Shown: positions 13,273 through 59,052 of the stretch, piece by piece
Position numbering within the stretch: position 1 is the stretch's first letter
How the letters are laid out: the number at the start of each line of letters is the position of its first letter
Assembly: GCA_964619725.1 (NCBI GenBank)
Contig: CAZUFC010000008.1
Coordinates: 61,941 to 125,940 of the forward strand
Reading direction: 5' to 3'
Source: an uncultured bacterium
Lineage (GTDB): Bacteria; CSSED10-310; CAZUFC01
Length of the DNA stretch: 64,000 nt
The notes under the pieces: generated by a model
What the model saw: only the letters and a program-made list of their open reading frames with translations
Databases searched by the model: none
What the model was told of the DNA's origin: nothing
Program-made: the position numbers and the translations under genes

Positions 13273-13347
13273 TAATTCTAAAAAAAGTTTTTTTTGGTAA
13301 TAAACAAACTGAACCAATAAAGAAATCAATTTCAGGAGGAGATAAAG

Positions 13348-14702: not shown

Positions 14703-14754
14703 TGAAAATATTCGTCTGAAGCTTATTCGTCTTTTGTCGAAAGGGGATGTATTG

Positions 14755-23249: not shown

Positions 23250-23278
23250 TTGACATAGACTTTTTTGCTGCTTATCAT
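23250..23278 (+). promoter_or_regulatory. Sigma70-type promoter, probably producing a leaderless mRNA
   Basis: TTGACA-17 nt-TATCAT; in-frame ATG at 23286, 7 nt after the -10 box, with no SD. Confidence 0.7.
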
Positions 23279-23285
23279 CCTTTTC

Positions 23286-26279: not shown

Positions 26280-26370
26280 TCCCGGGGATGGATTCCAAGA
26301 ATGCTGTTTATATTTCGCCTGCGTTAAAAATACATGCCGGCAAGAAGGCTTTTATAGGTTTTTAGGAGAA

Positions 26371-28860: not shown

Positions 28861-29083
28861 TCGTTTTCGTTGATTTCGCTGAGAGCATGAGTCGTCTTAA
28901 ATTCATAAGAGAAATTGCAGCCGGGGGTATATCGACATCAAGCGGAAAGTCAGGGCAGGGCCGAATGAGAAAGGTCTTGCTTTGCCGGATAAGATAATTT
29001 TCGTAGTCGCTTGACAATAAAGGAAAAATATTATAAAAATAAATGAACAAAAGAGAATTTAAATAATATTGGGGAGTTCAATT

Positions 29084-31915: not shown

Positions 31916-32990
31916 TGCTTTTCTGGAAATGGTAGCGGACCAGGAGGCGTCCGATCTTCACCTTATTTCCGGATCGCAGCCCATGATCAGACATAACGGC
32001 ACCATTAAACCCATTCGTTTCCGAACTCTTACTTCAAATTACACATGGTACCTGATGGAAGAAATCATGACGCCCGAACAGAAAGAGGCATACAAGGAAA
32101 ATAAAGAGCATGATTTCGCCTACGCCATACCGGGTCTGGCGCGTTTCCGCGTCAATATATTCAACCAGAAAAACGGCATCAGCGCCGTCTTTCGGTTGAT
32201 ACCGGAGAAGATCATGTCTATCGAGGATTTGAATCTGCCTCCCGCCTTAAGACAGTTCGCTTTCATGAACAAAGGCATAGTGCTGGTGACGGGACCTACG
32301 GGAAGCGGAAAATCGACTACTCTCGCCGCTATCATTGATGTTATTAATTCCGAAAGAAAATGTCATATCATCACTATTGAAGACCCCGTCGAATTCGTTC
32401 ATCCTCCAAAGAAATCCCTTATTACACAAAGAGAAGTCGGGACAGACACAGCAACTTTCGCCAGCGCTTTAAGGTCCGCTTACCGGGAAGCTGCCGACGT
32501 CATCCTGGTCGGTGAGATGCGCGACCTTGAAACGATCTCACTGGCGCTTACGTGCGCTGAAACAGGATGCCTGGTTTTCGGCACTCTTCATACCATCTCA
32601 GCAGCTAAAACCGTCGACCGTATGATAGATGTCTTCCCTAAAGAGGCACAGGCTCAGGTCAGAACACAGATATCACTCAGTTTAAAAGGAGTTGTTGCGC
32701 AACAACTGCTTAAAAGAAAAGACGGAAAAGGGCGAATAGCCGCAGTCGAAATTCTTGTCGGCTCAGTAGCTCTGTCGAACCTCGTCAGAGAAGGAAAAAC
32801 TTTCCAGATAGAATCGCTTATCCAATCTGCAGATTATGAAAAAACAGGCATGCAGACCATTGACCAGGCGCTTGTCAGGTTGCTCGATCAGGACCTGGTC
32901 ACTCCAGAAGACGCCTACCTGAAAGCGCATCAGAAATTGGCATTCAAAGACCTTATCGAAAGAAAATATCAATTCGAAGACTCCGCATGA
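31902..32990 (+). CDS. pilT: Type IV pilus twitching motility ATPase PilT
   Basis: ASDLHL, RFRVN, GPTGSGKST, EDPVE, LVGEMRD, GTLHT, ALSNLVRE; overlaps upstream gene by 14 nt. Confidence 0.93.
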   Translation: MAKIDAFLEMVADQEASDLHLISGSQPMIRHNGTIKPIRFRTLTSNYTWYLMEEIMTPEQKEAYKENKEHDFAYAIPGLARFRVNIFNQKNGISAVFRLIPEKIMSIEDLNLPPALRQFAFMNKGIVLVTGPTGSGKSTTLAAIIDVINSERKCHIITIEDPVEFVHPPKKSLITQREVGTDTATFASALRSAYREAADVILVGEMRDLETISLALTCAETGCLVFGTLHTISAAKTVDRMIDVFPKEAQAQVRTQISLSLKGVVAQQLLKRKDGKGRIAAVEILVGSVALSNLVREGKTFQIESLIQSADYEKTGMQTIDQALVRLLDQDLVTPEDAYLKAHQKLAFKDLIERKYQFEDSA

Positions 32991-33337: not shown

Positions 33338-33367
33338 TTGACTTCACAAATTTTATCATTATAAATT
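33338..33367 (+). promoter_or_regulatory. Putative sigma70 promoter of the giant protein gene
   Basis: TTGACT followed by TATAAA (16-nt spacer) or TAAATT (18-nt spacer) in an AT-rich region; AGGAGG RBS at the gene start. Confidence 0.45.
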
Positions 33368-33472
33368 AACGAAGGAAGTTATTGATCCTGCTGCAATAAA
33401 AATTCCAAAAAATTCATCATAAAAAATTAAAGAATAGAAATTTTAACTGCTTTAAATTTCAGGAGGCTAGGA

Positions 33473-36400
33473 ATGAGTAGGAGCAAGGGGGAATTTTCGA
33501 AATTATTTTTGACGATTATTTTATTATTTGCGGCGGGAGCATACGGCAATTTTGCATCAGGATCGCCGACGCCATCAGCGACGGTTGTGCCGACAGGTGA
33601 ACCCACGGAAGCATCGACTCAGATTGCGACCGAGGTTCCGACGCAGGTTCCGACGTTGACGCCGACATGCACGGCAACTATGCCGACGACCTGGAGCACG
33701 GACAGGGGGGAAAACTTAAAGGTTGCTGCGAGCGATGCGGGCCGCAGCAGTTACCGAATGATCCCGGACGATCTTGGCGGCTATATCGTGGTCTGGTATG
33801 AATCCGGAGAAGAGCAGGGAATATACGGACAGCGATTTGATGCGACCGGAGCGCGGATGTGGGGACCTGATGGGATCGAGGTATGTCCGAATGCTGTGAA
33901 TCCTTGGGGTCCGAAGATATGCACAGATGGAGCGGGCGGCGCTATTTGCCTTTGGTGGGATAATCAGGGTACATATGATCAGACCTGGATTCAGCGGATC
34001 GATGCATCAGGGAACCTTTCATGGGGCGAAGACGGTAATCTGATAAGTCCTTACAACGTTGATGCTGATTGTCCATTTATCGTTTCAGACGGAGCGGGCG
34101 GCGCTTATTCGGCCTTTTACGGATCGCAGGGCGTATATTGTCAAAGGGTCAGTTCAAGCGGGAACGTATTATGGACCACGCTTCTGGATGGTGACTCGAA
34201 CAACTGGGGAATAAAGCTTGAACAGGACGGCGCCGGCGGAGTCATACTGTCGTGGTCGTATGCGGACTCTGTGACCCAGGACGACGTGTATGTTCAAAGG
34301 CTGGACGGCAGCGGAGCGAAGTTATGGGGAAGCGAAGGTCTATGCGTATGCAATGAAGAAGACAATCAATATTGTTCGCGAATAATTTCGGACGGAGCCG
34401 GCGGAGGATTATTCATCTGGCGGGATCGCAGAGACGGATCGAACTACCGGATATATATTCAGAAGGTATTGGCGGATGGAACGGTTGCCTGGTCAGACGA
34501 TGGACTGGGCGTATTTTACGGAAATTCTCAGAGTTACGGACATGCTTTCGCATCGGACGGAGCGGGCGGAGCGATAGTAACGTGGTATTCCGGCAACGAC
34601 GGGAACATGTATGCCAGGCGGATCGATTCATCCGGTTATGACGTATGGGGAGAAGCCAGAGCCTTAACGGATCATGGATTGTTGAACGACGTATCAGATT
34701 CTCCCTATCAGACTGTCCAGGATGGAACTGGCGGCGTCATCACTGTATTCAACATTTATATTTCCGAGGAAACCCGTCATGAAATAGTCGCGCAGAGGAT
34801 CACGGGCGCGGGAACTCTGCCGTGGGGAATGAACGGGATAGTATTGAGCGATGCGACGCCGGGCAATAAGGGCTGTCCGCGAGCAGTCGGCTGCAGAGAG
34901 GGTGAAGGCGGAATGCTGGCGATATGGAACGACAGCCGGACAGGGACTTATGATATATATTTAATGGGGATCGACGTCAACGGCGTATTGGGAGCGCCAT
35001 GCTCGGAACCGGGAACCCCGACGCCTGTTTATACGATGACGCCTGAGCCGACGGGGAGTCCGGAGCCTGTGATGACGTGGAGTTCTGACTCCGATGTCAA
35101 CATGCGGGTAACTGATTCGGATTTCGATCAATTGAGTCACAGGATGATCGAAGACGGAGCGGGCGGATATATTATCGTTTACACTCAAGAGGACAACGGG
35201 ACGGACGACAATATTTACGCGCAGAAATTCAATGAATACGGCAACCGCGTTTGGGGACCTGAAGGGGCGCTCGTGGTCAGATACACCGGTTCGCAATGCA
35301 TACCGAAGTTATGTACGGACGGAGCGGGCGGAGCTATATGTTTCTGGGCCGATAACAGAAACGGAACTTATGAGGTATTTGGCCAGCACATCAACGAGGA
35401 CGGTGAGATACTATGGCCTGAATCCGGCATAAGGTTTTCAGAGCCCGGCGTCAATGCGGAGTGTCCCATAACTGCAGAGGACGGCCAGGGAGGCGCTTAC
35501 ATATTATTGGATTACGATTACAGTGGAGGACTTTGGTGTCAGAGAGTCAGCGGAGCCGGAGAGGTATTATGGCCGTCTCCTATTCAGTTATCATACAATA
35601 CGACTAATAATGTAAGTTCCAGGCACATTTTATCGGACCGCCAGGGCGGAGTGCTGTTAGTATGGTGCGAACCGAGACTGGACATGATGGATGATGTGTT
35701 TGTTCAGCGTCTGGCTCCTGATGGAACGAAGCTGTGGGGCGCCGGGGACTTATGCATCTGTGAGGCAGAAAATCATCAGACTTGTCCGCGGATATCGACT
35801 GACGGAACAGGCGCCGGGATATTCCTGTGGCAGGATTCCAGGGACGGCGTTAATGCGGCGCTTTATGCTCAGAAGGTATCGAGCGACGGGACAGTGGTCT
35901 GGGCTACGGATGGAGTCCAGGCCGCAAACGACAATATAGGTCAGGGCCACGCAATAGTGAGAGACTATTCAGGGGGAGCCATAGTCACGTATCGGGACAA
36001 TTCCGACAACAATATGTATGCTAATCGGATAGATTCGACCGGCGCTGCGGCGTGGGCAATGCCTGTTGCGTTAACCGATCATGGTGAGACGGACGTTGTT
36101 TCCTATCCTCCCCGGCAAGCAGTGGAGGACGGTTTAAACGGCGCCATAGCTGTATTTTCAGTTTACAATACGGTAACCGGTATCAACGAAGTGACGGCTC
36201 AACGAATAACGAGCGACGGTTCACTGCCGTGGGGCATCAACGGCATAGCGTTGAATACGAATGAGATGAGCTGGGGCGAGTGTGCGAGAGCGGTTCCCTG
36301 TTCATTAGGCGGCGGCGGTTGCTTTGCCTGCTGGCTTGACTACAGCGTGGGCAGTTATTTGACAGTAATGGGAATCGATCTTAACGGCAATTTAGGCGAT

Positions 36401-39400
36401 CCATGCGGATTTGTAGGTACGCCGACACCGGCGACTCCCGTTCCGACTTTTACGCCCACGCCGATTGAGGGATGGAGCGACGATCCTTACGTAAATTTAA
36501 AACCAAGTTCTACTCAGCAATTCATTTATCAGCCTCAGCGCATCATACCCGACGGTACGGGTGGATATATCATTTTATGGAATTATGAAGGCAATTATTA
36601 TCCCTGGGGATTATATGCTCAGCGATTCAGTTCGCTCGGCGAGCGATTATGGGGACCGACGGGAGTACCCGTCTGCACGGACGGAGCTGAAAATTGGGGA
36701 TACAGATTGTGTTCGGACGGCGACGGCGGAGCGATATTCTTCTTTATGAAGTATCCCGATTCAACGAGCGAAATCTGGGGACAACGGCTTGATGCCTGGG
36801 GAGAGCCTCAATGGGGCGAGGGCGGAAAACGCATATCGCCGATTTACTTGAATGCTGAATGTCCGTGGGCAGTTCCTGACGGCGAAGGCGGAGCTTTCCT
36901 CGTATGGCAGGGCGACGGCAGTCATGTATATCGAATTGATTCTGACGGGGAGTCGGTATGGCCGGCGCCTTACAGTCTTCCCGGCATCGAAAGCTGGAAT
37001 TGCGTTAAAGTATCCAGTGACGATCAGGGCGGCGTTATTGTAAGCTGGGTCATACAAGACAGCGTAACGCAATATGATATATACGCTCAGAGGTTCACGG
37101 CTTCCGGATCGCCGCTTTGGGGAGAGGACGGCGTAGCCGTGTGCAATGCGGATTTGAATCAGTATTGTCCCCGCATCGTTCCTGACGGCGACGGCGGTTG
37201 CTATATTTGCTGGGAAGACCGCAGAAACAATACTTATAGTTGCGTCTACGCTCAACGGATTCTCCATGACGGAACAGAAGCCTGGTACGATAACGGATTA
37301 AGGATAACTCTCGGTACGCAGAACATGCACGGTCATGCGATCGTAACCGACGGCGACGGCGGAGCGATAATAACCTGGAAATCTGAAACGGACGATAACA
37401 TGTATGCCAGGCGAGTCGACGGATCGGGCAATGATGTCTGGGGAAATGCAAAGGCTTTGACGGACACGGGTACAGTCATTGATGTAACTTATTCTCCTTT
37501 TCAGACGGTAAGCGACAATGCGGGCGGCGCTATCGCTTTCTTCACCATGAACGCTCCTGAAAAAGGTCCCCAGGATGTGTATGCTCAGAGAATATCATCC
37601 CAGGGATATTTGCCGTGGGGAATGAACGGCGTGGTCCTAAGCTATCAGGACAACAACAGCGGCTTCTGCGTCCGCGGAACATCATGCGATACGAGCGGTG
37701 AGGGCGGCGCTCTGGCGTGCTGGACGATACGGACTCCTCAGAATGAAGGTTACCTTTTCGTTCAGGGAATCGATCTGGAGGGCAACCTGGGCGCGCCTTG
37801 TTCATTGGTGGGGACGCCGGGACCGACGCCATCGCCGACGCCGACGGTAGCGACGGTCTGGAGCACGGAAACGGACGAAAACCTGAGGGTTTCGGAAACA
37901 CAGGTGAACCAGTGGTCGCACAGAATAATCAGTGACGAATACGGCGGATACATCGTCGCATGGCAGGTTGATCCGGGCACGGGGACTCAATCCGATGTGT
38001 ATGCCCAGAAATTCAATCAAGACGGCAACAAACTATGGGGACCTGAAGGACTGTGCGTATCGGCCCATTCAGCCCGTCAGGAATTTCCGAAGGTCTGCAG
38101 CGACGGAGCCGGGGGAGCATTCTTTTTCTGGCAGGATGCCCGTACTGCAGGTTGGACGGCCTGGGAAATATGGGGTCAGCATGTTGCAGCAGACGGCACA
38201 TTGCTCTGGCCGGAACTCGGCATAAGAATATCGCAGCCCGGTATAAGGACCATATGTCCTTATGCGGTATCGGACGAACAGGGCGGCGCGTATGTCATTT
38301 GGCAGGATAACGATGTGGGTTCCTATTGCATCAGGATCAACAGTGAAGGCGATTGGCTGTGGGCGAATCCTGTTTCGCTGGCTTCAAACGGATGGGGCAA
38401 TAAACTGGAGAAGGACGGTCAGGGCGGAGTCATCCTGGCCTGGAATGAAGGCGTTATCGACAACAGAGACCTTTACGTTCAGAGATTGGCGCCCGACGGC
38501 TCTAAGTTGTGGGGAGAAAATCACCTGTGTATATGTCAGGCCGCCAATGATCAGACCTGTCCGCGAATTCTGCCGGACGGTTCCGGCGGAGCCATAGTAC
38601 ACTGGGTGGACAGCCGCACGGAACGACAGGCTTACCACCTTTACATGCAGAAAATCGAGGCTGACGGGACGGTATCCTGGACGACCGACGGCGTTTGCAT
38701 AACCACTGATTTTGCTTATTGGGGACATTCATTCGTTTCCGACGGAGCCGACGGCGCACTAGTTATCTGGATGAATGAAACCGAGGACAACATGTATGCC
38801 AAGCGGTTCGACTCGACCGGCGTTGAAGTGTGGCCTTCTGCCGTTCAATTGACTGATCACGGTTCGGTAGTCAACATGTCCTATTCGCCGTATCAGACCG
38901 TACCGGACGGTTTAGACGGCGGAATAGTTTTTTTCACGGTATATGACGATGTTGAACTAACTACAGAACTGACGGCGCAGCGTATTATGCCGGACGGAAC
39001 TCTTCCCTGGGGAATAAACGGGATAGTGTTAAGTTCTCATACGACAGGCGACAAGGACTGCGCCAGGGCCGTCTCCTGTTCCACGGGAGCCGGCGGAGCT
39101 CTGGTCTGCTGGCAGGACTATCGGACCGGCAACAGCGCCTTGCACCTGATGGGCATCAGTCCTGACGGCATTCCTGGCGATCCGTGCACTCAAATCGGCA
39201 CGGGTACGCCTACGCCCATGCCGCCGTCGCCCACTCCGACCGCTACTTTGCCTTCTGTCTGGAGCACGGACCCGGCTGAGAATCTGAGCGTATGCAAGAC
39301 GCAGCTCGATCACAGTTACGGACACCGCATCATTGAAGATGGAGAGGGCGGTTACATCATCGCCTGGTATTATCAAGGGGCAGTGTATTCTCAAGGTATT

Positions 39401-42400
39401 TACGCACAGAAATTCAACAGCCTGGGGAACAGAATGTGGGGTCCGAACGGCATACCGGTCTGTACGGAACCTGCTGAAAACTGGGGTTACAGGCTGTGTT
39501 CGGATGGAGCAGGCGGAGCCTTCTTCTTCTGGACGGACGATAGAACCAGCGGCATCCAGCAGATTTGGGGACAGCACATCTTAAGCGATGGAACGACTGC
39601 CTGGGTCGCTGACGGAAAACGTATCTCTCCTTACTGGAATGACAACGCATGGTGTCCGTGGTGCGCTCCCGACGGAACGGGAGGCGCTTTTGTCGTATGG
39701 CAGGGAGACGGTTCATTCGGCCAGAGAATCGATGCAGAAGGAAACACGCTATGGTCGCAACCCGTTCAATTTACGACAAACAAGAATTACGGCAGCCTGA
39801 AAGTCATCAACGACGGTGAAGGCGGCGCTTTAATGACTTGGATCGACTATGACGAGACGACTAACGACGACATATTTGCGCAGAAAATATCGCCGGAGGG
39901 AACGGGACTCTGGGGACCGAATGGAATAAGCATTTGCCGGGCGACCAACAGGCAGCAGTGCCCGCGACTGATATCCGACGGAGAAGGCGGCGGATTATTC
40001 CTGTGGAGCGATTACAGGTATAACAACCAGTATCAAATTTACATACAGAAAGTTCTAAGCGACGGGACCATAATATGGAAACCCGACGGCGTGCAATTGA
40101 CTTTTTATGACACTTTTTCAGGATATAAGCATTCGTTGGTTCCGGACGGAACCGGCGGAGCCGTTGTAACCTGGCATGACGACACGGACAACAATATGTA
40201 CGCCCGGCGTCTGGACGGTTCAGGATTCGATCCCTGGGGAGGCCGATTCGCGTTGACGAACCTGAGCCAGGTTACGGACATGGCTTATTCGCCCTACCAT
40301 ACTTTAAGCGACAATGCGGGCGGGGCTATTGTTCTTTTTCAGGCTTATAATGAAACAGAGGAACGAAATGAAGCTGTAGCTCAAAGGATAACCAACGGCG
40401 GAGCATTACCGTGGGGAGATAATGGTGTAGCGTTATGCACGACGGATACCTCGGATTCGTGCATACGCGGAGCGACCTGCTCATATGGCGAGGGCGGAGT
40501 ATTAAGTCTGTTCAGAGATTGGCGTAACGGCGAGGATGCTTTATACGTCATGGGGATCGACATTAACGGCCTATTAGGCGATCCATGTTCTGCCGTGGGC
40601 ACTCAGACGCCTGTGCCGAATACTCCGACGCCGACGCCTGTTCCTACTACGGCATGGGAGACTGATCCTTCGGTTAATATCAAATTGACCGAGGCGACGA
40701 TTAAACAGGAAAGTCACAGAATCATTTCTGATGGGTACGGGGGCTATATAGTTTCCTGGCATGAAGAGGTTACGACGCCTAACTGGAATGAGGATGTTTA
40801 TATGCAGAGATTCAACGCGGACGGCAATCGCATGTGGGGCCCGGAAGGGGTCGTCGTTTGCTCGGCTTCGAGAAGGCAGGTATACGCCAAGATAAGTCCC
40901 GACGGAGCCGGCGGAGCTTTCTGTTTCTGGCAGGACGACCGCAATACGGCCGATTATCATTGGGAAATATGGGGACAGCATATAGCTCCTGACGGTACGG
41001 CATTATGGAAAGAAAACGGAATCAAAATATCGACGACCACCGGTCAATGTTATTGTCCTTATACGGTGACGGATACGCAAGGCGGAGCTTACGTTATATG
41101 GGGCGACGGAACGGACGGTTGTCACTGTCTGCGAATCAACGGAGCCGGCGAATGGGTCTGGACGAATCCCGTTTATCTGGGAATCAGCGACTGGGGCATT
41201 AAAATACGACCGGACGGATTCGGCGGCGCCATAATGACGTGGGTTGAAACCAGAGGAGACACTGGAAGCGATATTTATGTCCAGAGACTGGCTCCCGATG
41301 GAACGAAACTATGGGGCGCCGACGATCTGTGTATCTGCCAGGCGCCGAATTCGCAATACTGCAACCGCATACTGACTGACGGAGCAGGCGGCGCTTTCTT
41401 CCACTGGATAGATCGAAGAGATAATCTGGCGGATATGCTCTACATGCAGAAAGTAGAAAGCGACGGCACGATTTCCTGGGCTGCTGACGGGATATGCGCT
41501 TATAACGGAAACGCCTATTCCGGGCATGACTTCGTTTCCGACGGCAGCGACGGTTTCATATTGACATGGTTTGCCGAGGATGAAGGAAATGTTTACGCAC
41601 AGCGATTCGACTCGACGGGAGCCGCTGTGTGGACTGCAGATTTAATGCTGACAGATCACGGAATGGTTGACAGTTATTCATATTCGCCCGATCAAACGGT
41701 TTCCGATGGACTGGACGGCGGCATAACCTTTTTCACTGTCTATGACGACGTCGAATTACGTTATGAAATAATCGCTCAGCGCGTTACTCCTGACGGAACG
41801 CTGCCGTGGGGTATAAACGGAATTGCTTTATGCGATCAGGCAGAGGGATCGAGAGAATGCGCCCGCGGCATTTCATGTTCAACCGGAGGCGGCGGCGCAT
41901 TGGGCTGCTGGAATGACACTAGAGACGGGGATATGGCTATTTACCTGATGGGGATTAACCATAACGGGGATCTGGGCGATCCTTGTTCGGCGCTGGGCAC
42001 TCCCACGCCTGTAACTCCGTCGCCGACTCCCACAGTCACGGTTCCCTCAGTATGGAGCACGGACCCCGACGTCAATTTGCCGGTATGCAAGACGCAGATG
42101 AATCATAATTATTCGCAGAGAATTGTGTCTGACGGCCTCGGAGGATACATAGTATTCTGGAATTATGACGGCGGCATGGACGACGAAGGATTGTACGCTC
42201 AAAGATTCAATGAACTGGGCAACAGAATGTGGGGTCCCAACGGAATACCCGTTTGCACGGAACCAACGATGAACTGGAGTTTCAGATTATGCGCGGACGG
42301 ATCAGGCGGCGCCTTTTTCTTCTGGTGTGATATGCGGCATTACGTGCAGCTTCAAACCTATCAAATCCGGGGACAGCACATAAACGTTAACGGTGAGATT

Positions 42401-45400
42401 CAATGGGCTGAAAACGGCGTGCAGATTTCTCCTTCCTGGATGGAAGTATATTGTCCCTGGTGCGTGAGAGATGAAGAGGGGGGCGTCTATGTGGTCCTTC
42501 AGGAAGACGATGGCCTGAATTACTGCCAGAGAGTAAACTCGGACGGAGAGACAGTATGGCCGTATCCAGTAGAAATCGGCGGCGATGAATGGGGCGGAAC
42601 TAAACCTGTCCCGGACGGTTCTGGCGGCGTCATTCTAACCTGGGACAACGGTTCCAGCGACATTTATGCTCAACGGATCGATGCGAACGGAAACAGGCTT
42701 TGGGGAGAAAACGGCATCCCGGTATGCATAGCGGCCGGAGAACAACGTTGTCCGCGAATCATCAGGGATGGTATCGGCGAAGCGATCATATTGTGGAAGG
42801 ATAATCGGCACTCTGGATATGAAGTTCTTTACATGCAGAAAGTCCTGAGCGACGGTAGTTTCGCCTGGGGATTGGACGGAATACGAGTAACTCCGATGAG
42901 CAACGTGGATATGGGTTATCTGCTGGTTCCTGATGCAGAGGACGGCGTGATAGTGACCTGGAAATCCGCAGATGACGGCAACATGTATGCGAGGCGGATA
43001 GATGAATACGGCTGGGACGTCTGGGGCGGTCCCATATCATTGACTGACCACGGTCAATGCCTGGACCCCACCTGGTCTCCTTATCAAACGGTACCCGATA
43101 ATGCCGGCGGCGCTATAACGCTGTTCACCTACTATAATGAAACGGAGGACAGAGAAGAAATAGCGGCGCAGAGAGTCGCTGCAGGCGGCGGTTTGCCGTG
43201 GGGCATGAACGGTCTTGTATTGAGTACGCATGCTGAAGATTGGGGCTCCTGTCCTCGCGGCGCTGCGTGTTTATCCGGGTCAGGAGGAGTCCTGGCTCTA
43301 TGGAGAGACGAGCGCGAAGGAGAGCCGGTCTTGTATCTGATGGGGATAGACATTAACGGGAATCTCGGCGCTCCCTGCGGCGAAATCGGCTCTCCGACGC
43401 CTGAAATACCGACGCCTACGCCCACGCCGACAATCGTGACGACGACCGTATGGAGCGTGGATACGACTGAGAACCTGCAGGTTACCGATTCCGAGAATCC
43501 GCAGTGGAGTCACAGGATCATAAAAGACGGTTACGGCGGATATATCGTGGTGTGGTATGAAGAACCGGGAGGCTCCGGATACGATATCTACGCACAGCGA
43601 TTCAACCAGTACGGCAATCGCATGTGGGGCGACAGCGGCGTTCCCGTTTGCACGGTCGGCGCCCACCAGATATATCCGAGAGTGAGTCCTGACGGAGGCG
43701 GAGGAGCCATCATTACATGGCAGGATTACAGGAACAGTTCGAATTGCGAAATTTGGGGACAGAGAATCGGACCTGATGGAGTTCCTTTGTGGAGAGAAAA
43801 CGGCATACGCATATCGCAGGAGGGAATTGAAGCCTATTGTCAGTTCATGGACCACGACGGACAGGACGGCGCTTACGTCATATGGCAACTGGACGGCTCC
43901 GGCACGCAATGTATGAGAATAAACGGCGCAGGAGAATATCTATGGGCAGAACCTCTGGAACTCAATACTTCGGGAGAATCGGCCAAAATCGTTGCGGACG
44001 GAACGGGAGGCGCTATAGTAACCTGGTATGAAACGAGAGGAACGACATACGCCGACATTTACGCGCAGCGCTTGACGTCCGACGGAACGAAACTTTGGGG
44101 AGAAAGCGATCTTCTCATATGCGATGCAGACAATAACCAGGGTTGTCCCCGGTTGATAGCCGACGGGTCTGGCGGGGCATTGTTCCTGTGGACTGATCCT
44201 AGAGACGGAGCGACTCATAAGCTTTACATGCAAAAAGTTTCTTCGGACGGCAACATAGCCTGGACGGAAGACGGCATTTGCGTATTTGACGGAGGAAACA
44301 ATAACCATGCCTTCGTTTCTGACGGAACAGGCGGCGCGTTTGTCACGTGGCGCTCAACTGCAGATCAGAATATGTACGCTAAACGTATCGACAGCCTTGG
44401 AGTGGATGCCTGGCCTGCATCCGTGCAGTTAACCGATCACGGCAATGTATCGAATGTCTCCTGGTCGCCTCACCAGACTGTTTCAGACGGAATGAACGGC
44501 GCTGTAACCTTCTTCACGGTATATGACGACGTCAATTTAATTTACGAGGTAACTGCGCAGCGTGTGACGGACGACGGAAGCATGCCGTGGGGCATCAACG
44601 GCGTGGTTTTGGGCAACAATGACTTGGCTTCGCCGGAATGCGCACGCGGCGTATCTTGCTCCACGGGAGGAGGCGGCGCCCTGGCCTGCTGGCCTGACCA
44701 ACGGGACGGCTATTATGAGATTTACGTCATGGGCGTCAATCTCGACGGCGTTGTGGGCGATCCCTGCTCTGCTGTCGGAACGCCTACGCCGGTTACTCCT
44801 TCTCCGACCCCGACGGCCACGATACCTTCGGTCTGGAGTACAGACCCAGATGAAAATTTAAGCGTAGCTAAAACGCTGTTGAATCAGGACCGCGGCCAAC
44901 GAGTCATTTCCGACGGATTGGGAGGTTGGATCACGACTTTCTATTACCGCGGCAACAATCAACCCAAAGGAGTTTACGCTCAGAAATTCAACGAACTCGG
45001 CAACCGCATGTGGGGACCGAACGGGACGCCTCTCTGCTACAGCGATGAGGCGAGTTGGAGTTTCAGGATGACTCCAGACGGCACGGGAGGGGCCATTTTC
45101 TTCTGGACCGAGTACAGCTATCCCGAATATTCCTACATATGGTCTCAGCGGCTTGACGCCGACGGCGATCCGATGTGGTCCGGCAAAGGCGTCAGGATAT
45201 CGCCTTACTGGTTGGAAGCTTCCTGTCCGTGGCCTGTTCCTGACGGAGAAGGCGGCGCATACGTCGTTTATCAGGCGGACGATATGGGGGCTTATTGTCA
45301 GAGAATCAGTTCTTCCGGTGAATTGTTGTGGGGTTCAGGCGTTGTGCTCGGATTTCATTATTGGCCGGCGCCCAAGATATGGAGCGACGGTGAAGGCGGA

Positions 45401-48400
45401 ATTTTAACGACCTGGGTTGAAAATGACGAGAATGAAGACGAAGACATTTACGCTCAGAAACTGGACCCCTACGGTAATAAACTTTGGGGAGCCGAAGGAA
45501 TATGCATATGTGCGGCAGAAGGCGAGCAATATTGTCCTCAAGTCATTAACGACGAAGCCGGAGGAGGTTTGTTCCTCTGGACAGATGATCGAGAAGGCAT
45601 TTACGACAAGCTTTACATGCAACGGGTAACGGCTGACGGGACGGCAGCCTGGACTGAAGATGGGGTATGCGTATTTTACGATCGTACGGACAGTTACGGA
45701 CATGCCTTTGTTCCTGACGGATACGGCGGAGCGGTCGTCACCTGGATGTATGAAGGCGATGCCAACATGTATGCCAGGCGCATCGACGTTAACGGTCAGG
45801 ATGTATGGGGCGGTTCCATCCCCATAACGGACCACGGCGCTGTTCTGGATGTTTCAGACTCGCTTTACAAGACGGTTACGGACGGAGGCGGCGGAGCCAT
45901 AGCATTTTATACCTATGATAATGCAGCCGAAGACCGTTATGAAGTCGTCGCTCAGCGCGTGTCTATCGATGGAGGATTGCCCTGGGGTATGAACGGAGTT
46001 ACTCTGAGCACCCACGGCAAAAATTGGGGTTCATGCGTGCGGGGAGCGGCCTGCGTTGACGATGAGGGCGGCGCACTGGCCATATGGCTGGATGAACGGG
46101 AAGGTTCAGGAGCGTCCTATGTGATGGGAATCAATTATGAAGGAGTCCTGGGCGACCCGTGTTCGCTGCTTCCCACAGCGACGCCGACAATGACCCCGAC
46201 GGTTACTCTAACGCCTACACCGACTCTTTCGCCGACGGCGACGTTGAGTCCGACGGCGAGTCCTACGCGGACTCCGACGCCGGCATCAACGTATACGGCG
46301 ACGCCGACGCCGCTGGGAACGAAATCGCCGACGCCTACTCCCACGAGTTCTCCCACACCTGCACCTGATCTGATCATACGCAGTCAGGACGTGGGATTCG
46401 ATCCGACTTATCCCGAAGAAGGCGAAATCGTGCTTATCAGCGCGACCGTGCATAACGTGGGCAATGCCGCAAGCGGCGCTTTTAAGGTAAGGTTCTTTGC
46501 GGATTACGGTTTCGGACCGGTTCAGATCGGCACCGACAAGACGGCGGGACCGTTGAATCCGGGACAGTCGCAGACAGTAACGGAAACCTGGTCGGTAGTA
46601 TGCGATATGACTATTTCGGCACAGGCGGACATACTGAACCAGGTGATGGAACTGAATGAAATGAACAATACCGGCATCAGAACGGTACCGATTCTGTATT
46701 GTCCTGAAGAGGTATCGTTGAGCATCGCTCCGGACAGCCGGAACATCGGAGTAAGCGGAGAAACGGAATTTACGGTTACGGTGGAAAACGGCAATCTGGG
46801 TCCGGATACGTTCGACCTGGAACTGTCGGGAGCCCTGCCGCAGTCGTGGGTTACGCTTGAGCCGAATCCGATGACGCTGAACGCCGGCGAAACCGGCGAG
46901 GCGACGCTGACGGTCAGCGTACCGAGCGAGTGTTACGTGATAGGAACGTATCCTTTTGAAATTACGGGGACCTCGCAACAGATGACCGAAGATTACAGCG
47001 ACGATGCGACGCTGGAAGTCGTCAGCGACGTTCAGGCGACTCAGCGGAATCCTGCGGACGGAACGACCACGGGCAGCCGAGATGTAATGTTCAGTTGGCA
47101 GACATCGGTACCGGCCGATTCATGGCTGTATTACCGGAAACTGGGGGATACGGAATGGATCGAAACCGCTGTATCCGTCGAAACGACGGTTCATCAATGG
47201 GAAATTGAGGACCTGGATAGAAACGAGACTTACGAGTGGTATGTGCATCTGGAGTCTTTATGCGGCGACGGAGATTCCTCAACATGGACCTTTACGGTCG
47301 GAAACGGCGTGGTCTTTACTCAGGACTCTTACACATTCTACGTGGAAAGAGATTACGATCAGCATGTGTGGGTCGGGGTTCACAATGAAGACGTGGTGAG
47401 TCACACGGCTGAACTCAGCATCGACAACCCCAATGAGGAACTGATCGTCAACTTTGTCGGACCGGGAAGCGAAGAAGAAACCATAATACTGGCTCCGGGC
47501 GAAACCCGGAACGTTGAATTGGTGATACACGCGCAGGACGTCGAACCTGATTCGGGCAAACCTGATGAGATATGTTTCGATAATCTTCTGCTGTCTCTGA
47601 CTGCGGATGAGGAAGGAACGCCGATAACCGATACGGCGCCGACGACGATTTGCGTGCAGTGGCCGGACATCAATTTTGCTTTGACTGAAGAGTCTGCAGA
47701 CCCGGTTACCCTGGTCAAGACATGCCGGGTAACTAACAACGGCGATCCGTTGACCGACCTTTCCGTGACGTCTCAGGGCGACCTGCTGGGACGCGTACTG
47801 TTCATACCGCGGATCGATCATTACAGGCTTGACGGATCGGGCGACTATATCGATTTCTATGCGGAACCGGTATTCCAGCCCGGAGATACGACGCTTTCAG
47901 GCGACCTGGCGGCAGATGCAGCGGGCGTTCAGGATATATTGCCCGTGACGTTCGATTGCGAAGCGCCCCGTTCCGTATACGAAGTGACCGTGGCTGAGCC
48001 CGAACTCTGTTACTCCATGGCTAACTGGTTCTGCACGAACCGGCCCGTAATATCCATGACTTTTGAAGTGACGGTAGGGCTGGAAGAAATAGAAACAGCC
48101 GTAATTTACACGACCTTCGTGCCGCATTCAGGAGTACGGCCTCACTTCGTCGACCTTCACATCAACGGCAACCTTATCGGAGAACTGAATGACATCATAC
48201 CCGACGGAACATACGGGTTCGCTTTCGATCCGGGATATCTGAACATCAGTCCCGGAGGCACGGCGTCCAATACATTCTCAATCCACACCACGCATCTGAA
48301 CGGCGGACATTATGTGGTTTCAACCGATTCACTGGCGGTTCTGACGCTGGGCTCCACGACGCTCTACGTCTGTGCGGACGACCAGGAACAGGCGGACGAT

Positions 48401-51400
48401 ATAGCGCCGACGTTGCCTCAATTCTGCGAAGGGTATACCTTCGATCTTAATCCTCGCGTGCAGTCGGTCAGTATTCTGAATTCTGCGGAAGAACCATGCA
48501 ATGTTTTCTACCCGGGCGAAACCGCCAAGATAAAAGTCAGGGCTGAGAATCCTCATCCCTTCTACAATTACGATGCGACTTATACGCTCAAGATCGATAC
48601 GGACGGCGACACGGGAACAGCGGAATACGACAGTCACCTGGAGGCTGAGGACTGGATAACCAGCCTGCCTCATAACGCTGACGTTTATCACACGTGGGAT
48701 TGGACTGTACCGGCGGGCGCTCCCGACATTCAACTGACGGTCGAGGCGCATGAAACGGCCGATTATGGAAATTGCTGGCATTGTCCGGGATGGAACTGGA
48801 CCTTCCATGTCGGCGGCGGCATAACGGGTTATGTGCGTGAAGCCGGAACGCTGGCGCCGATACCAGGAGCCTCTGTCACCGCAACGGGCGGTTATTCCGA
48901 TCCTGGCGGAAGCGCGGCCGACGGATACTATGAGATTCACCGCATACCGAACGGAACGTATGACGTGACGGCCGGAGCGGCGGGATACGTGCCTGCGACG
49001 TTGACGGGATTGACCGTGGCGAGCGAGATACTGACGAACCAGGATTTCGAGCTGGTAACGCCGTCAGCGACGCCGACGCCTACCATAACCGACACTCCGA
49101 CGCAATCGCCGACTCCCACGATTACCGCTACGCCGACTTTGAGTTCGACTCCCACCGTATCGCCGACAGGAACGTTGACGCCTTCGCCGACCGATTCTCC
49201 GATACCGACGCAATCGCCTACCATAACAAACACGCCTACTGCGACGCTGACGCCCACGGCCACATTGTCTCCCACCGTCACCATAAGTCCCACCTATACG
49301 CCGACCCACTATACGGCTACTCCTACAGTGACCGTGACGCCCACTTATTCCCCCACGCGAACGCCCACGCCGCTTTCTACCGACACTCCGACCCCCACGC
49401 CAATGGGAACCAAAACTCCTTCGCCTACTCCGACCAGTTCGCCGACGCCGGCTCCCGACCTGGTTATCAGAAACCAGGATATCGAGTTTAATCCTGAGTA
49501 TCCGGAAGAAACAGAGACCGTTACGGTTTCCGCCACGGTTCATAATTTCGGCAACGCTTCCTGCGGCGGTTTCACCGTTCGCTTCTACGCAGATGACGGT
49601 TCGGGACCGGTGCAGATCGGTTCGGACCAGGCTGTCGGACCGTTGAATCCGGGCGATTCGCACATGGTATCCGAAACCTGGACAGCGGTTTGCGATACGG
49701 TTATTTCGGCTGAAGCGGACGTCCTGGATGAGGTGATGGAATCCAACGAATTCAACAATTCAGGGGCCCGAACAGCTCCGATCAAGTATTGTCCGGATGC
49801 GGTAACTTTAAGCGTGGAACCTGAATACATCGATGCAGACGTCGGCAGCGAGGTTGAGTTCACTGTTTACGTGGATAACGGGAACCTGGGTCCGGATACG
49901 TTCGATCTGGAAATTACGGGTTCGTTGCCCGAAAGCTGGTATGTGCTTGAACCCGACCCGCTTAACCTCAATGCCGGCCAGGTGGGAGAAGCAGTCCTTA
50001 CGGTGACCGTACCCAACGATTGCGGCGCGATCGATGCTTATCCCTTCCAGATCACCGGAACTTCCTTCGAATTGGGAATGGATTACACGGATGACGGTAT
50101 GCTTGAAGTGATGTCAGAAGTATTGATAACCCAGAGGAATCCCGGCAACGGAACAACCACCGGAAGTCGCGACGTATCCTTCAGTTGGCGGACATCAGCC
50201 CTGTCCGATTCCTGGTTGTATTACCGGGCCGTCGGTTCGGGAAGCTGGATCGAAGTTCCCGTCGCCGTTAACTCTATGAGTCACTCGACGGAACTGGAAG
50301 GACTTGAAAGAAACATTACTTACAACTGGTTCATCTACATCAATTCGCTTTGCGGAAACACCACTTCGCCCATATGGATGTTCACCGTTGGAAACGGCGT
50401 CGTTTTCACACAGGATAATTACTCGTTCACCGTGGAACGCGATTACGACCAACATGTCTGGGTGGGCGTCCACAATGAGGATGTGGTCAGTCACGACGTG
50501 CAGCTTCACATCGATAATCCGAACGACGATCTGATCGTCAACTTCGTCGGTCCGGGCAGCGAGGACGAAAGCATAACCCTGGCCGCTGGAGAAACCCGCG
50601 ACGTCGAACTGGTGATCCATGCCCAGGATGTGGGCAATGAAGGCGACAGCAAACCCGAACAAATCTGTTACGACAATATCGTCCTTTACCTGACCGCAGA
50701 CGAAGGCGAAGACCCCATAACGGACACCGCTCCGACGACCATATGCGTGCAGTGGCCTGACATCAATTTCGTAGTGTCCGAACAGAACGAAGACCCGCTC
50801 ACCCTGGTCAAGACATGCCGCGTGACCAACTACGGCGATGCCTTGACCGACCTGTCGGTTACGGGAGAAGGCGGACTGCTCGGCAGGGTCCTTTTTATTC
50901 CTCGCATCGACCATTATAAGCTGAATTCGGGAGCGCATATCGACTTTTATGCCGAACCGATGTTCCAGATGGGCGACACGTATCTGTCGGGCGATCTCGT
51001 CGGCGAATCTGCGGGAGTGCAGGATATTCTGCCGGTTACCTGGGAATGCGAATCGCCGAAATCGGTGTATGAAGTCGTGGTGGCCGAACCTGAACTGTGT
51101 TACTCCATGGCCAACTGGTTCTGCACGAACAGACCCGTCATTTCGATGACCTTCGAGATCAGCGTCGGCATGCAGGATATAGAAACGGCAGTCGTCTACA
51201 CTACTTTCATTCCTCATTCAGGCGTCAGACCCCACTTCGTCGACTTGTACATCAACGGCAACTGGATCGCTGAATTGAACGATATCATCCCCAGCGGAAC
51301 ATACGGTTTCGCCTTCGATCCGGCCTACTTGAACGTGAATCCCGGCGGCACCGCCTCCAACACCTTCTCAATGCATACGACTCACCTCAATGGAGGACAC

Positions 51401-52645
51401 TACGTCGTGTCAACCAATTCACTCGCTGTTCTGACTCTGGAATCGACCACGTTATACGTCTGTGCGGAAACGCAGGAAGATGCCGACGATATTGCGCCGA
51501 CTTTGCCGCAGTTCTGCGAAGGTTACACGTTCGATCTCTATCCCAGAATTCAGACCGTGAGCATACTGGACGTCAATGAGAATCCCTGCAGCGTGTTCTA
51601 TCCCGGCGAGACCGCAAAAATACGCATGAGGACGGAGAATCCTCATCCCTTCTACGGCTACGACGTGACCTATTCATTGAAGATCGATACGGACGGGAAT
51701 CCCTCAGAACCTGAATACGACAGCCACCTGGTCGACGAAGACTGGGTCACCACGCTGGAACACAATGCCGACGTTTATCACACCTGGGATTGGACCGTCC
51801 CCTCAGGCTCCTCCAACGTTCACCTTACTGTTGAAGCGCATGAAACAGCTAATTACGAAAACTGTTACGATTGTCCCGGATATAACTGGGGCTTCAGCGT
51901 CGGCGGCGGCATCACGGGTTACGTGAGAGAAGCCGGCACGCTCGATCCTATCGAAGGAGCTTCCGTTACGGCACAGGGCGGTTATTCCGATCCGGACGGC
52001 TCAGACTCCAACGGTTACTACGAAATCCATCACCTGCCCAACGGTACCTACAGCGTTACGGCAGGCGCCGCAGGATTTGTGCCCGCAACCATCTACGGCT
52101 GCGTCGTCGAAGGAAACATACTCACCAATCAGGACTTCGAACTCCTTACTCCTACTATAACGCCTACTCCCACAGTCACCAACACGCCGACCGTCACCTC
52201 CACCCCGACCATCACCCCCACTCCGACGCTCAGTTCCACGCCAACCATCACCCCGACGCCCACGCTCTCTTCTACTCCCACTCAATCGCCTACTGCAACC
52301 TTGTCGCCCACCGCTACTCTCAGTCCTACCGTTACGCTCTCACCCACCGTTACCCTTTCACCTACCGTTACAATCTCTCCCACAAGAACACCGACACGCA
52401 CGCCTACTCAATCTCCCACTGTTACGCATTCGCCCACAACCTCGCCGACCGCTACACTGACCCCTTCCCCCTCCTTCACCGATACGCCGACTTTGACGCC
52501 CACATCGCCCACTCCTACACTTACTCCCGTTCCCACTATTCCGCCGATTCCTGCTCTCGGACGCTTTGGAACGATCACGCTCCTGCTGCTTATCGGCTTC
52601 TCCATTATGGGCTGGAGGAAATTGAATACGAAACATACGAGATAA
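33473..52645 (+). CDS. Giant (6390 aa) surface protein: nine 8-bladed beta-propeller-like domains, two copies of a CARDB/Ig/FN3/carboxypeptidase-regulatory-like block, Pro/Thr linkers, IPTL-CTERM-like anchor
   Basis: Signal peptide; ~465-aa repeats starting at 33692, 35078, 36473, 37859, 39260, 40655, 42053, 43451, 44834, each with eight DG.GG....W-type motifs; duplicated block at 46364 and 49454; ends [32 protein letters not shown]. Confidence 0.92.
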
Positions 52646-52677: not shown

Positions 52678-52723
52678 CCCCGAATCTGCCGCTCCTGCCG
52701 GACGGCCGATTCGGGGACTTTTT
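52678..52723 (+). terminator. Intrinsic terminator after the giant gene
   Basis: CCCCGAATC.GCCG.TCC / GGA CGGC.GATTCGGGG stem followed by ACTTTTT. Confidence 0.75.
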
Positions 52724-52934
52724 CCAATCATGAATCTTGAAAAATACTCTCTACATCTCACTCAACACACAATTGAGACATTCACCAGTATGAAAATCAC
52801 TCAATCCTCTTTTCCTGTTTTGACATTTTTCGCTCGATCATTAAAATCAAAGAGTCTGATACTGGAAATAAATTTTTATCTCTTTCGGTTTTTTATAATT
52901 TTTTTCGTTGATGAACAATGAAAAGGAGAACAAA

Positions 52935-53576
52935 ATGAACAAAAAAGAAAAAGTTTTCTTAATCCTGGCTGCTATTCTTATTGCAGGCTTCTCAGGATAC
53001 AGGTCCCTCGGATTGCTTCATTCGGAATCCAATCATAACGATGTTATTGAAGATCAAAATGTTTCCGATACCGCTGAAAAAGTCGACAGTATAACGGAAA
53101 CAAAAAATCAGGAAAAAAATGCCGGAAATGAAGCTCAAAAAAATAATCGCCGTATAAAAACTGAAAAAGCTCCTGCAGAACAAAAAAATCAGGAGAAAAA
53201 AGACCTGGGAATAGTCCCTTCTGAATTGATGGCTAAAATAAAACAGATTAATGAATTACAGGATCGTGAGCTTTGGAGTTTGAGGACCCGCAACAGAGAA
53301 AACAGGGCGGAAACAGAAGTCAGAAAATTTAAGGACGGTTATGAGCTCCGTTACAGACGGCATGGGTCGGGACGCCTGGAGGCAAGAATCGACGAAGAAG
53401 GCAATATTATGCGGCTTCATACCTGTGGCCCTAAAAGACAACAGTTTGAAGGCGAAGAAAGAGAGGTTGTCATGCAGGAAATAGTTGATGCTGTCCTGGA
53501 GGAAGCTCAAAACAGAGGGGGCTCGAAAGCGTCTAGTAACAGTGATAAATCCAGGCGCGGCAGAAAAAGAAATTAA
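52935..53576 (+). CDS. Hypothetical membrane-anchored/exported protein
   Basis: AAGGAG-6 nt-ATG; N-terminal hydrophobic segment, charged linker, small C-terminal globular region. Confidence 0.75.
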   Translation: MNKKEKVFLILAAILIAGFSGYRSLGLLHSESNHNDVIEDQNVSDTAEKVDSITETKNQEKNAGNEAQKNNRRIKTEKAPAEQKNQEKKDLGIVPSELMAKIKQINELQDRELWSLRTRNRENRAETEVRKFKDGYELRYRRHGSGRLEARIDEEGNIMRLHTCGPKRQQFEGEEREVVMQEIVDAVLEEAQNRGGSKASSNSDKSRRGRKRN

Positions 53577-55018: not shown

Positions 55019-55285
55019 ATGGAAACCATGATTGATAAATTCGGCAGAATCGTCATTCCCAAAAAAATACGTGATTCTTTGGGACTCAAACCAGGTTCAT
55101 CGTTTTATATTGAAGAAAACAACCGTGAAATCCGTTTGAAACCTGTAGAAGGGACGCCGCAACTAAAAAACAAGAATGGCTGGCTGGTTTTTACCGGCGA
55201 AATTCAAGGCGAAGTAAATGAGTTCAAGGACAGTCACTTATCAGTTGATGACCCATATTCGAACTCTGACAGTCCTTTCACCTGA
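55019..55285 (+). CDS. AbrB/MazE/SpoVT-family DNA-binding protein (orphan VapB-like antitoxin)
   Basis: IDKFGRIVIPKKIRDSLGLKPG swapped-hairpin motif; 3' end overlaps the convergent gene; no toxin gene follows. Confidence 0.88.
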   Translation: METMIDKFGRIVIPKKIRDSLGLKPGSSFYIEENNREIRLKPVEGTPQLKNKNGWLVFTGEIQGEVNEFKDSHLSVDDPYSNSDSPFT

Positions 55286-56770: not shown

Positions 56771-56909
56771 TTTAAAAATCCTCCTTATTGAACCATCTGT
56801 TAAGAAACGACTATCCACCCATGTTTATTCCGTTCTCCGCGAATAAACATATTTCTTTTTATACTGAAATGTATCTGCAAAGCAAAAACTTCTTTTATTT
56901 CTGTTCTGA

Positions 56910-59003: not shown

Positions 59004-59052
59004 TAAAATCCTCCCTGTTAAATATTCAACTCCCCATTCTATCTTTATTGAC

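Follow-up and report, generated by a model that had tools for sequence, protein, structure and literature searches.

A single gene of 19,173 nucleotides (nt), located at positions 33473..52645 of the forward strand in a 64,000-nt stretch from an uncultured bacterium of the lineage CSSED10-310 (GenBank assembly GCA_964619725.1, contig CAZUFC010000008.1, positions 61,941 to 125,940; the whole stretch is called the window below), encodes a giant protein of 6390 amino acids (aa) in which nine predicted eight-bladed beta-propellers are followed by two copies of a 902-aa block of immunoglobulin (Ig)-like domains, by Pro/Thr-rich stalks and by a short sorting-like tail. The role which fits this anatomy best, and which we regard as moderately probable, is that of an anchored multivalent binding array with propellers predicted to bind ligands. 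Binding is favoured for three reasons: the scaffold and the loops of the propellers diverge differently across the nine copies, the same 902-aa block carries FG-GAP propellers in related proteins, and the best target-normalised structural matches of the propeller are sugar-binding lectins. FG-GAP repeats form the ligand-binding propeller of the integrins.

The open reading frame (ORF) runs uninterrupted for 6390 codons plus a stop, as the earlier note on this DNA had described, and it is by far the longest in the window, where 42 ORFs reach 150 aa or more and the next complete one has 1004 aa. The ribosome-binding site AGGAGG, read from the sequence at 33461..33466, is positioned 6 nt ahead of the start codon ATG, and the gene is separated from a PilT-like gene upstream by an intergenic gap of 480 nt; the sigma-70-like match found upstream (33338-33367) is weak, single and no more than shuffled sequences give. 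The translation begins with a signal-peptide-like N-terminus (approximately aa 1-30, 33473..33562) consisting of a basic start, a hydrophobic run and small residues before a putative cleavage site, followed by a Pro/Thr-rich spacer (aa 31-73, 33563..33691). A weak terminator-like hairpin with a T-run, identified by consensus match only, is present 53 nt after the stop (52698..52724), where 0.3 such hairpins were expected and one was found.

Metagenomic genes rich in repeats are prone to mis-assembly, and the giant protein itself was absent from the ten matches of a length-matched search described below, both of which would fit an ORF created artificially by assembly or gene calling, for example by fusing several genes with repeats into a chimera. 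However, the direct repeats inside the ORF form 23 families which are all 60–83% identical, with no near-identical stretch among them, making repeat collapse or mis-joining during assembly unlikely. The frame, moreover, stays open over its full 19,173 nt behind a ribosome-binding site with a coherent order of parts (signal, heads, rods, stalk and tail), and one relative of 2195 aa, P0014, has the same order in miniature, with propellers, cassette, stalk and tail. An artefact is, on these grounds, very improbable; the gene is neither a product of chance nor an obvious misassembly. The spacings of the DNA repeats (approximately 1395 and 2790 nt) have the same periods as the protein domains and the two-domain unit. 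The G+C content inside the ORF (0.52–0.56 at 34001-52000) differs from that of both flanks (0.46–0.48), for which either the composition rich in Gly, Pro, Thr, Ala and Asp or a separate gene history may be responsible.

With WS[TSDV][DE] marking the start of each domain and G[DA]PC its end, the distal part of the protein resolves into nine domains, each of 439–446 aa, repeating with a period of 462–467 aa and joined by Pro/Thr linkers of 17–23 aa, in agreement with the nine domains of about 465 aa with short Pro/Thr spacers which had been noticed previously. All are encoded on the forward strand: D1 (aa 74-512, 33692..35008), D2 (aa 536-980, 35078..36412), D3 (aa 1001-1445, 36473..37807), D4 (aa 1463-1907, 37859..39193), D5 (aa 1930-2374, 39260..40594), D6 (aa 2395-2840, 40655..41992), D7 (aa 2861-3304, 42053..43384), D8 (aa 3327-3767, 43451..44773) and D9 (aa 3788-4232, 44834..46168). 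The alignment of the nine domains spans 461 columns with 84 invariant positions, including six cysteines per domain, and the pairwise identity is 39.5–57.4%. Each domain, D1 included, contains eight DGxGG motifs, 52–62 alignment columns apart, and cutting at this motif produced 72 blades of 41–61 aa (approximately 55 aa) with the consensus r.vsDG.GGAIv.W.d.r......iYaQRid.dG...WG..G.

The AlphaFold2 model of D1, built from a nine-row alignment, was all-beta with eight strand groups, a predicted local distance difference test score (pLDDT) of 88.5, a predicted TM-score (pTM) of 0.89 and no segment with pLDDT below 50. A Foldseek search with this model against the PDB gave 500 or more matches at E<=1e-3, led by the CylK propeller (E 6.9e-11), which also had the best query-normalised TM-score (TMq) in the PDB, 0.55, while the best target-normalised agreement (TMt 0.63–0.65) was obtained with the seven-bladed lectins PHL, PLL and CV39L; other leading matches were the designed Cake8-10 proteins, GH43 enzymes, prolyl oligopeptidases and LRP6. 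All of these leading matches we take to be beta-propellers. The viral library BFVD returned equally generic propellers with a best TMq of 0.60. Each repeat domain is therefore confidently predicted to be an eight-bladed beta-propeller, a toroid of repeated four-stranded antiparallel blades as modelled, although none of the structural matches is close; the earlier suggestion that the repeats fold as whole propellers agrees with this model.

The sequence divergence is distributed unevenly over the blade. In cross-domain pairs the identity was highest in the A-B turn (0.70), intermediate in the strands (0.50–0.59) and the C-D turn (0.55), lower in the D strand together with the D-A loop (0.38) and lowest in the B-C loop (0.27). 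In four-stranded propeller blades the B-C and D-A loops are placed on one face of the disc. If the standard topology applies here, the two variable loops would share one face, and for this reason the array would offer nine non-identical faces on a conserved scaffold.

The nine propellers fall into two alternating subtypes. The maximum-likelihood tree of the nine domains recovered an 'even' clade of D2, D4, D6 and D8 (support 100/99) and an 'odd' clade of D3, D5, D7 and D9 (95/94), with D1 belonging to neither; both clades persisted (98/100 and 99/98, respectively) when 15 domains from six relatives were added, and held domains of the giant protein only. The motifs by which the subtypes had been recognised originally, C-STG.GGAL in D4, D6 and D8 and W[GS][YF]R preceding the DGxGG of blade 2 in D3, D5, D7 and D9, are present as described, and the trees not only bear out the alternation but extend it to D2, which the earlier note had omitted. 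The consensus sequences of the two subtypes are 43% identical over 439 aligned columns, and the linkers are alike in length in the even-to-odd (20–22 aa) and the odd-to-even (17–22 aa) direction. Since the two clades are exclusive to the giant protein, a two-propeller unit has apparently been amplified four-fold within its own lineage, which supports the amplification proposed before. Among the 72 blades, identity across domains is 46.4% for equivalent positions compared to 24.7% between positions, which indicates that the eight-blade unit is old and that the whole-domain copies are younger; taken with the 39.5–57.4% identity of the whole domains, it points to growth by domain units. The subtype alternation thus records an array that grew by two-domain duplication and not by single blades.

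The propellers are followed by the first Pro/Thr stalk (63 aa, 46169..46357), block 1 (aa 4296-5197, 46358..49063), the second stalk (128 aa, 49064..49447), block 2 (aa 5326-6227, 49448..52153) and the third stalk (approximately 129 aa, 52154..52540), all on the forward strand; none of the three stalks matches a Pfam or NCBIfam family. The two blocks are each 902 aa long, are 71.6% identical at the protein and 70.6% at the nucleotide level and are offset by exactly 3090 nt. Both start with a CARDB domain (PF07705, block residues 2-105, 54.0–63.0 bits against a cut-off of 22.7), continue with about seven beta-sandwich domains and end with a CarboxypepD_reg-like domain (PF13620, block residues 822-899, 47.3–51.6 bits against a cut-off of 32.3), the latter region also matching a carboxypeptidase D domain in the PDB (E 0.002–0.005). 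Sub-threshold Pfam matches of Ig-like or FN3-like type were NPCBM_assoc, FixG_C, Pur_ac_phosph_N and Wzt_C; Pfam gave nothing in block residues 301-600, and the ESM Atlas look-alikes of the block centre scored 0.80, which is chance level. The AlphaFold2 model of the block (eight alignment rows; pLDDT 78.0, pTM 0.50) consists nearly entirely of strands, and its strand list suggests about nine beta-sandwich units. Foldseek matched it to ciliary central-apparatus proteins, complement C3/C5, alpha-2-macroglobulins, mastigoneme, contactin and titin with E values from 3.5e-22 to approximately 1e-12, but with TMq of only 0.11–0.20, so that the similarity exists at the level of single domains and not of domain arrangement. 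The duplicated Ig-rich blocks of about 900 aa seen in the initial reading are, accordingly, recognisable as Ig-like chains in both the model and the structure search. Membership in the Kustd1514 family of S-layer glycoproteins (NF052345) was rejected at 55.3 and 50.7 bits against a cut-off of 1400, the match being local (model positions 1251–1414 of 1596).

The block recurs in other proteins under different heads. One copy is present behind FG-GAP propellers in P0161 (64% identity) and behind propellers of the giant protein's own family in P0014 (62% identity), while P0160 has two copies (57–58% identity) placed behind FG-GAP_2 and before a beta-helix and a cohesin domain; a further relative with the block, P0162, carries a dockerin domain. 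The 902-aa block appears, therefore, to be a reusable cassette under interchangeable heads.

In the last 34 aa (52541..52642, forward strand) the motif PPIPALG is followed by a hydrophobic helix some 18 residues long, and the protein ends with the basic sequence RKLNTKHTR. This layout recurs behind a Pro/Thr stalk in three of the nine other window ORFs inspected, namely a scaffoldin-like gene with two cohesin domains (1927-4659, forward strand), a gene with DUF6923-like repeats (4816-6180, reverse strand) and one with a right-handed beta-helix (56910-59069, reverse strand), as well as in five of 13 relatives inspected (P0161, P0014, P0017, P0012 and P0160). A tail shared by four genes of the window suggests a genome-wide anchoring or sorting system outside the curated models. 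In the available part of a study of C-terminal sorting signals, these are described as tripartite, with a signature motif, a hydrophobic helix and a basic cluster (bioRxiv 10.1101/2023.06.07.544157), and by inspection the giant protein's tail has this layout of the PEP-CTERM class. As far as that part of the source describes the PEP-CTERM/exosortase class, the likeness includes the motif abutting the helix, the basic cluster at the extreme C-terminus and the many-to-one usage suggested by four such genes in 64 kb, and the difference lies in a basic cluster of mixed Lys and Arg instead of an Arg-rich one and in the lack of a match to any curated model. Should the tail be a processed sorting signal, it would represent a new member of the exosortase-like systems. 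The signal-like N-terminus and the shared tail layout are consistent with the anchored protein with a sorting tail that had been suggested at the outset. Three other routes were rejected for the giant protein: type IX secretion, since Pfam found no Por_Secre_tail, CHU_C or FlgD_ig domain; the LPXTG sortase route, since the tail has no LPXTG; and RTX/type I secretion, since no RTX or hemolysin-type match was obtained in Pfam or NCBIfam.

Together these parts allow a model in which the giant protein would be exported by the Sec pathway and tethered at the cell surface by its C-terminus, the tail either staying as a membrane anchor or being processed by a sortase-like enzyme acting on the [V/I]P-x-x-G motif, helix and basic cluster. 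An extracellular location would be in line with the signal-like N-terminus, the six invariant cysteines per domain, the Pro/Thr linkers, the CARDB and CarboxypepD_reg domains and the beta-sandwich rod. Outward from the membrane, the tail would be followed by the stalk of approximately 129 aa, by the two 902-aa Ig-like rods split by the 128-aa stalk, by the 63-aa stalk and finally, far from the cell, by the nine eight-bladed propellers on hinges of 17–23 aa. Their related, non-identical binding faces, with a conserved scaffold and variable B-C and D-A loops, might bind a repetitive target by avidity, most plausibly a glycan or the surface of another cell. The array would have grown by four-fold amplification of the two-propeller unit, the rod having been duplicated once. 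From the earlier description of a beads-on-a-string multivalent adhesin, the propellers strung on short Pro/Thr hinges stand, and the adhesin role is a putative one.

The propeller belongs to a very large family for which curated models are missing. Over aa 1-4236, Pfam gave only sub-threshold matches at E<=0.1 (DUF1491, DUF5122 and Mtf2_C) and none to the named propeller repeats SBBP (PF06739), FG-GAP, RCC1, Kelch, WD40 and YWTD; NCBIfam had no family for aa 1-1001, and the propeller profile had no match among the PDB sequences at E<=1. The match to DUF5122 (PF17164) scored 18.5 bits (E 0.0024) against a gathering cut-off of 27 and came from one 17-residue stretch in 3235 aa, a distant flavobacterial relative (the L003 ORF) scoring 21.6 bits; it may serve as a lead to a remote relation and not as membership. 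Weak matches to DUF1491 (PF07372) were observed at aa 618-651 of the giant protein and in five of 12 relatives (P0012, P0021, P0023, P0027 and P0070), with the whole-protein cut-off reached in P0021 and P0023 and no single stretch passing; they may reflect a shared blade-like motif. Look-alikes of the propeller in the ESM Atlas were unnamed clusters only (score 0.96; recognition 1567, below the 2300 mark). Searched against 1.84 billion cluster representatives, the profile itself matched 36,469 of them at E<=1e-3; tightening the threshold to E<=1e-10 left 19,179, and to E<=1e-30 left 8,656. When 12 of the 150 listed matches were scanned with Pfam, no recognised propeller family covered the matching region, the FG-GAP repeats of P0018 being located N-terminal of it. 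No literature on the propeller family or on the giant protein's tail was found in open-access PMC and bioRxiv.

Whole-domain matches, covering at least 380 of the 444 profile positions, were obtained in six of the 158 proteins compared, all of them in tandem: three copies each in P0012 and P0013, two copies and a truncated one in P0014, two in P0017, two behind the FG-GAP repeats in P0018, and one with a truncated one in P0025. Strings of several propellers hence appear to be the rule in the closest subfamily, and the tree pairs the relatives' domains by position (for example, P0013_d3 with P0014_d2 and P0014_d3 with P0018_d2). These six metagenome proteins share the same eight-bladed propeller end to end (profile positions 1–443), and P0014, named 'carboxypeptidase regulatory-like domain-containing protein [bacterium]', additionally resembles the giant protein in its cassette, Pro/Thr stalk and PPIPALG tail. 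They differ in size (1205–2195 aa), in having at most three propellers and one cassette compared to nine and two, and in the lack of alternating even and odd subtypes. The length-matched search, limited to proteins of 3514–11183 aa, gave ten matches at E<=1e-3, the best being P0002 (27% identity over 37% of the query) and P0003 (23% over 51%). The giants P0003 (5506 aa), P0121 (7213 aa), P0002 (4286 aa) and P0016 (4506 aa) also contain many blades of the type DGxGG...W...YaQR...G. However, their relation is distant (20–29% identity for P0003 and P0121), the accessory domains of P0002 and P0016 are different (Big_5, BNR_4, SBBP and 3keto-disac_hyd), and P0002, P0003 and P0016 are without the PPIPALG tail. 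A search of 185,579 species genomes with the pattern Gx[LM]PWG[MID]NG[IVL] only gave 18 loci with 22–30% identity to the propeller, of which, going by their record titles, 17 are presumably from Bacteroidota and one from Phycisphaerales, and none is a close relative. One of the loci attributed to Bacteroidota, in Marixanthomonas spongiae, encodes a protein of 549 aa with a type IX secretion tail, and type IX sorting domains are present in some distant relatives (P0015, P0021 and the L003 ORF).

Several observations weigh against the binding array. The propeller has no characterised relative, and the proposed function is read from the predicted fold and the architecture alone. The Foldseek similarity is generic, at TMq of up to 0.55 in the PDB and 0.60 in BFVD, and the matches include enzymes besides lectins; the placement of the variable loops on one face follows from textbook topology only. 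With regard to the tail, NCBIfam searches with the terminal 30 and the terminal 50 aa gave no family at E<=10, the models tested including PEP-CTERM, PGF-CTERM, IPTL-CTERM, GlyGly-CTERM and MYXO-CTERM, and Pfam gave none at E<=1 with the terminal 163 aa. No sortase-like gene (exosortase, archaeosortase, rhombosortase or CPBP protease) was present among the window ORFs. The tail may be a plain membrane anchor and, if the cell has an outer membrane, the protein would then stay periplasmic.

An alternative function would be that of a structural component of the envelope, such as an S-layer-like coat, a sheath or a matrix scaffold, in which propellers and rods would self-associate. We consider it unlikely, although it would account for the use of one anchor by several paralogous surface proteins of the window and for the presence of stalks open to O-glycosylation and of three membrane glycosyltransferase-like genes upstream; the C-terminal part of the block, moreover, has weak matches to the Kustd1514 S-layer family (E 2e-15, 55 bits) and to the NCBIfam model 'putative S-layer protein'. 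The 55 bits of the former stand against a cut-off of 1400, however, and come essentially from the CarboxypepD_reg-like region, and nine diverged propellers with variable loops fit a diversified recognition better than a uniform lattice. A surface array of enzymes in the manner of a cellulosome, each propeller being a glycoside hydrolase, a lyase or a transferase, would be suggested by the Foldseek matches to CylK, GH43 xylosidases, BT3686 and prolyl oligopeptidases, by the cohesin scaffoldin-like gene with the same tail at 1927-4659 and by the cohesin and dockerin domains of the cassette relatives P0160 and P0162. Yet no enzyme family was matched in Pfam or NCBIfam, the TM-scores to enzymes are low (TMq 0.28–0.55), and the conserved residues (DGxGG, W and YxQR) recur in turns and strands of every blade, as expected from a signature of the scaffold and not of a single active site; the giant protein itself is, according to Pfam, without a dockerin. 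Catalysis is, on balance, decidedly unlikely.

The alternation of the subtypes can also be taken as functional, with even and odd propellers forming obligate heterotypic clamps, four pairs and one single propeller in total. The strict order with its clade support of 98–100%, the identity of only 43% between the subtype consensus sequences and the repeat unit of approximately 2790 nt visible in the DNA are all compatible with such clamps; in-register duplication of two domains already explains the alternation without any functional pairing, however, and the linkers inside and between the supposed pairs are similar in length, which makes clamps rather improbable. A broader proposal includes them, namely that the propeller is the type example of a huge recognition family on interchangeable anchors and the giant protein a bacterial counterpart of the LRP type. 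The interchangeable systems would be the giant protein's tail, the type IX secretion domains and the 902-aa cassette, and a polymeric ligand or another cell would be captured at a reach that, as a rough estimate from approximately 4,200 folded and 560 Pro/Thr residues, could exceed 100 nm. It seems to us quite unlikely as a whole. The anchored multivalent binding array is kept as the preferred reading.

The surroundings of the giant gene include further surface-related genes. On the forward strand upstream are three membrane glycosyltransferase-like genes, which encode a PMT_2/LA_3751-like protein (17451-19097), a Wzy_C O-antigen-ligase-like protein with TPR repeats (23265-26279) and a TMEM260-like protein with TPR repeats (26182-28860); the latter two ORFs, as listed, share 98 nt, the second start being probably located further downstream. 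The available part of one publication reports that human TMEM260 O-mannosylates Ig-like IPT domains (PMC10214176), and as a lead only, the three genes might O-glycosylate the stalks or the Ig-like domains of the giant protein. They are followed by a gene for a 948-aa protein in which HEAT repeats are fused to a PilT/PilU-family ATPase (29069-31915, forward strand; TIGR01420, 427 bits) and, immediately upstream of the giant gene, by a standard PilT-family ATPase of 362 aa (31902-32990, forward strand; 452 bits), these two genes overlapping by 14 nt. Another propeller protein of the surface type is encoded nearby, an 829-aa LVIVD-repeat protein (19281-21770, forward strand; Pfam LVIVD 185 bits, with a choice-of-anchor B domain), unrelated to the giant one. 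Directly downstream, the forward-strand ORF 52908-53576 encodes 222 aa that include a single hydrophobic segment and end in a strongly basic C-terminus, without a match in Pfam, NCBIfam or PHROGs, and is preceded by a sigma-70-like sequence at 52820-52847 which matches strongly, in 11 of 12 positions.

Further downstream on the reverse strand, the ORF 55241-56818 encodes a protein of 525 aa which starts with a signal-like segment, is assigned to no family by Pfam or NCBIfam and matches phage tail-fibre PHROGs (phrog_9942, E 3.7e-11, residues 230-441). An origin of the giant gene from a mobile element or a phage was rejected: D4 had no match in PHROGs and the flanks give no pointer, this tail-fibre-like ORF being the sole phage-like one and unrelated. 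The reverse-strand ORF at 59889-63998, which runs off the window end after at least 1369 aa and contains collagen triple-helix repeats (Pfam Collagen, 73 bits), appears to encode another very large surface-type protein. Metabolic genes are represented by a forward-strand cluster for fatty-acid beta-oxidation (10858-16548) with a FadB-like 3-hydroxyacyl-CoA dehydrogenase/enoyl-CoA hydratase, a thiolase and an acyl-CoA dehydrogenase. The thiolase had no relative above 67% identity among 5.8 billion protein clusters, pointing to a poorly sampled lineage, and its next-best relatives carry mixed names (Blastocatellia, Kryptonia and 'bacterium HR08'). The Rfam and tRNA scans of the window gave nothing.

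Compared to known systems, the giant protein has size, a beta-sandwich rod, repeat amplification and a predicted surface location in common with the classical giant adhesins (for example P0008, 'cadherin-like domain-containing protein'), but its distal two-thirds (aa 74-4232) consist of whole propellers. The LRP family comprises membrane receptors with tandem propellers on a single-pass tether which bind ligands multivalently. It resembles the giant protein in the arrangement of whole propellers in series on a membrane tether, and two-propeller chains of LRP6 were among the Foldseek matches; in contrast, its members are eukaryotic, their propellers are six-bladed, of the YWTD type and separated by EGF domains, and LRP6 shows no sequence relation to the giant protein (TMq 0.23–0.27). 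The lectins PHL and PLL of Photorhabdus and CV39L of Chromobacterium, sugar-binding propellers according to their PDB titles, have seven blades in a single soluble domain and 10–13% identity. The RCC1-type propeller-repeat proteins of Oscillospiraceae, in the accessible part of their description, are likewise giant bacterial proteins made nearly entirely of propeller-forming repeats and predicted to be extracellular (bioRxiv 10.1101/2023.11.21.568195). According to the same part of that source, they are built from the seven-bladed RCC1 repeat, are reported without membrane anchors and consist of a single repeat over the whole length, in contrast to the discrete propellers, Ig-like rods and stalks found here. 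The opinion of the earlier note that the protein is unusual for repeating whole propellers was overstated, given these RCC1 giants, the six relatives with tandem copies and the distant giants of 5506 and 7213 aa.

Giant repeat-domain surface proteins, giant propeller-repeat proteins and tandem copies of the same propeller are thus already known. What is new is the scale, with nine discrete eight-bladed discs, the alternation of two subtypes brought about by amplification, the presence of an unclassified tail and of two copies of the 902-aa cassette in the same protein, and the existence of a huge propeller family lacking both a curated model and a solved structure, for which the confident eight-bladed prediction makes it a target for curation and structural work. 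Beyond the single protein, the cassette, stalks and tail, which carry propellers, FG-GAP repeats, beta-helices and cohesins alike, point to modular surface display in this uncultured lineage.

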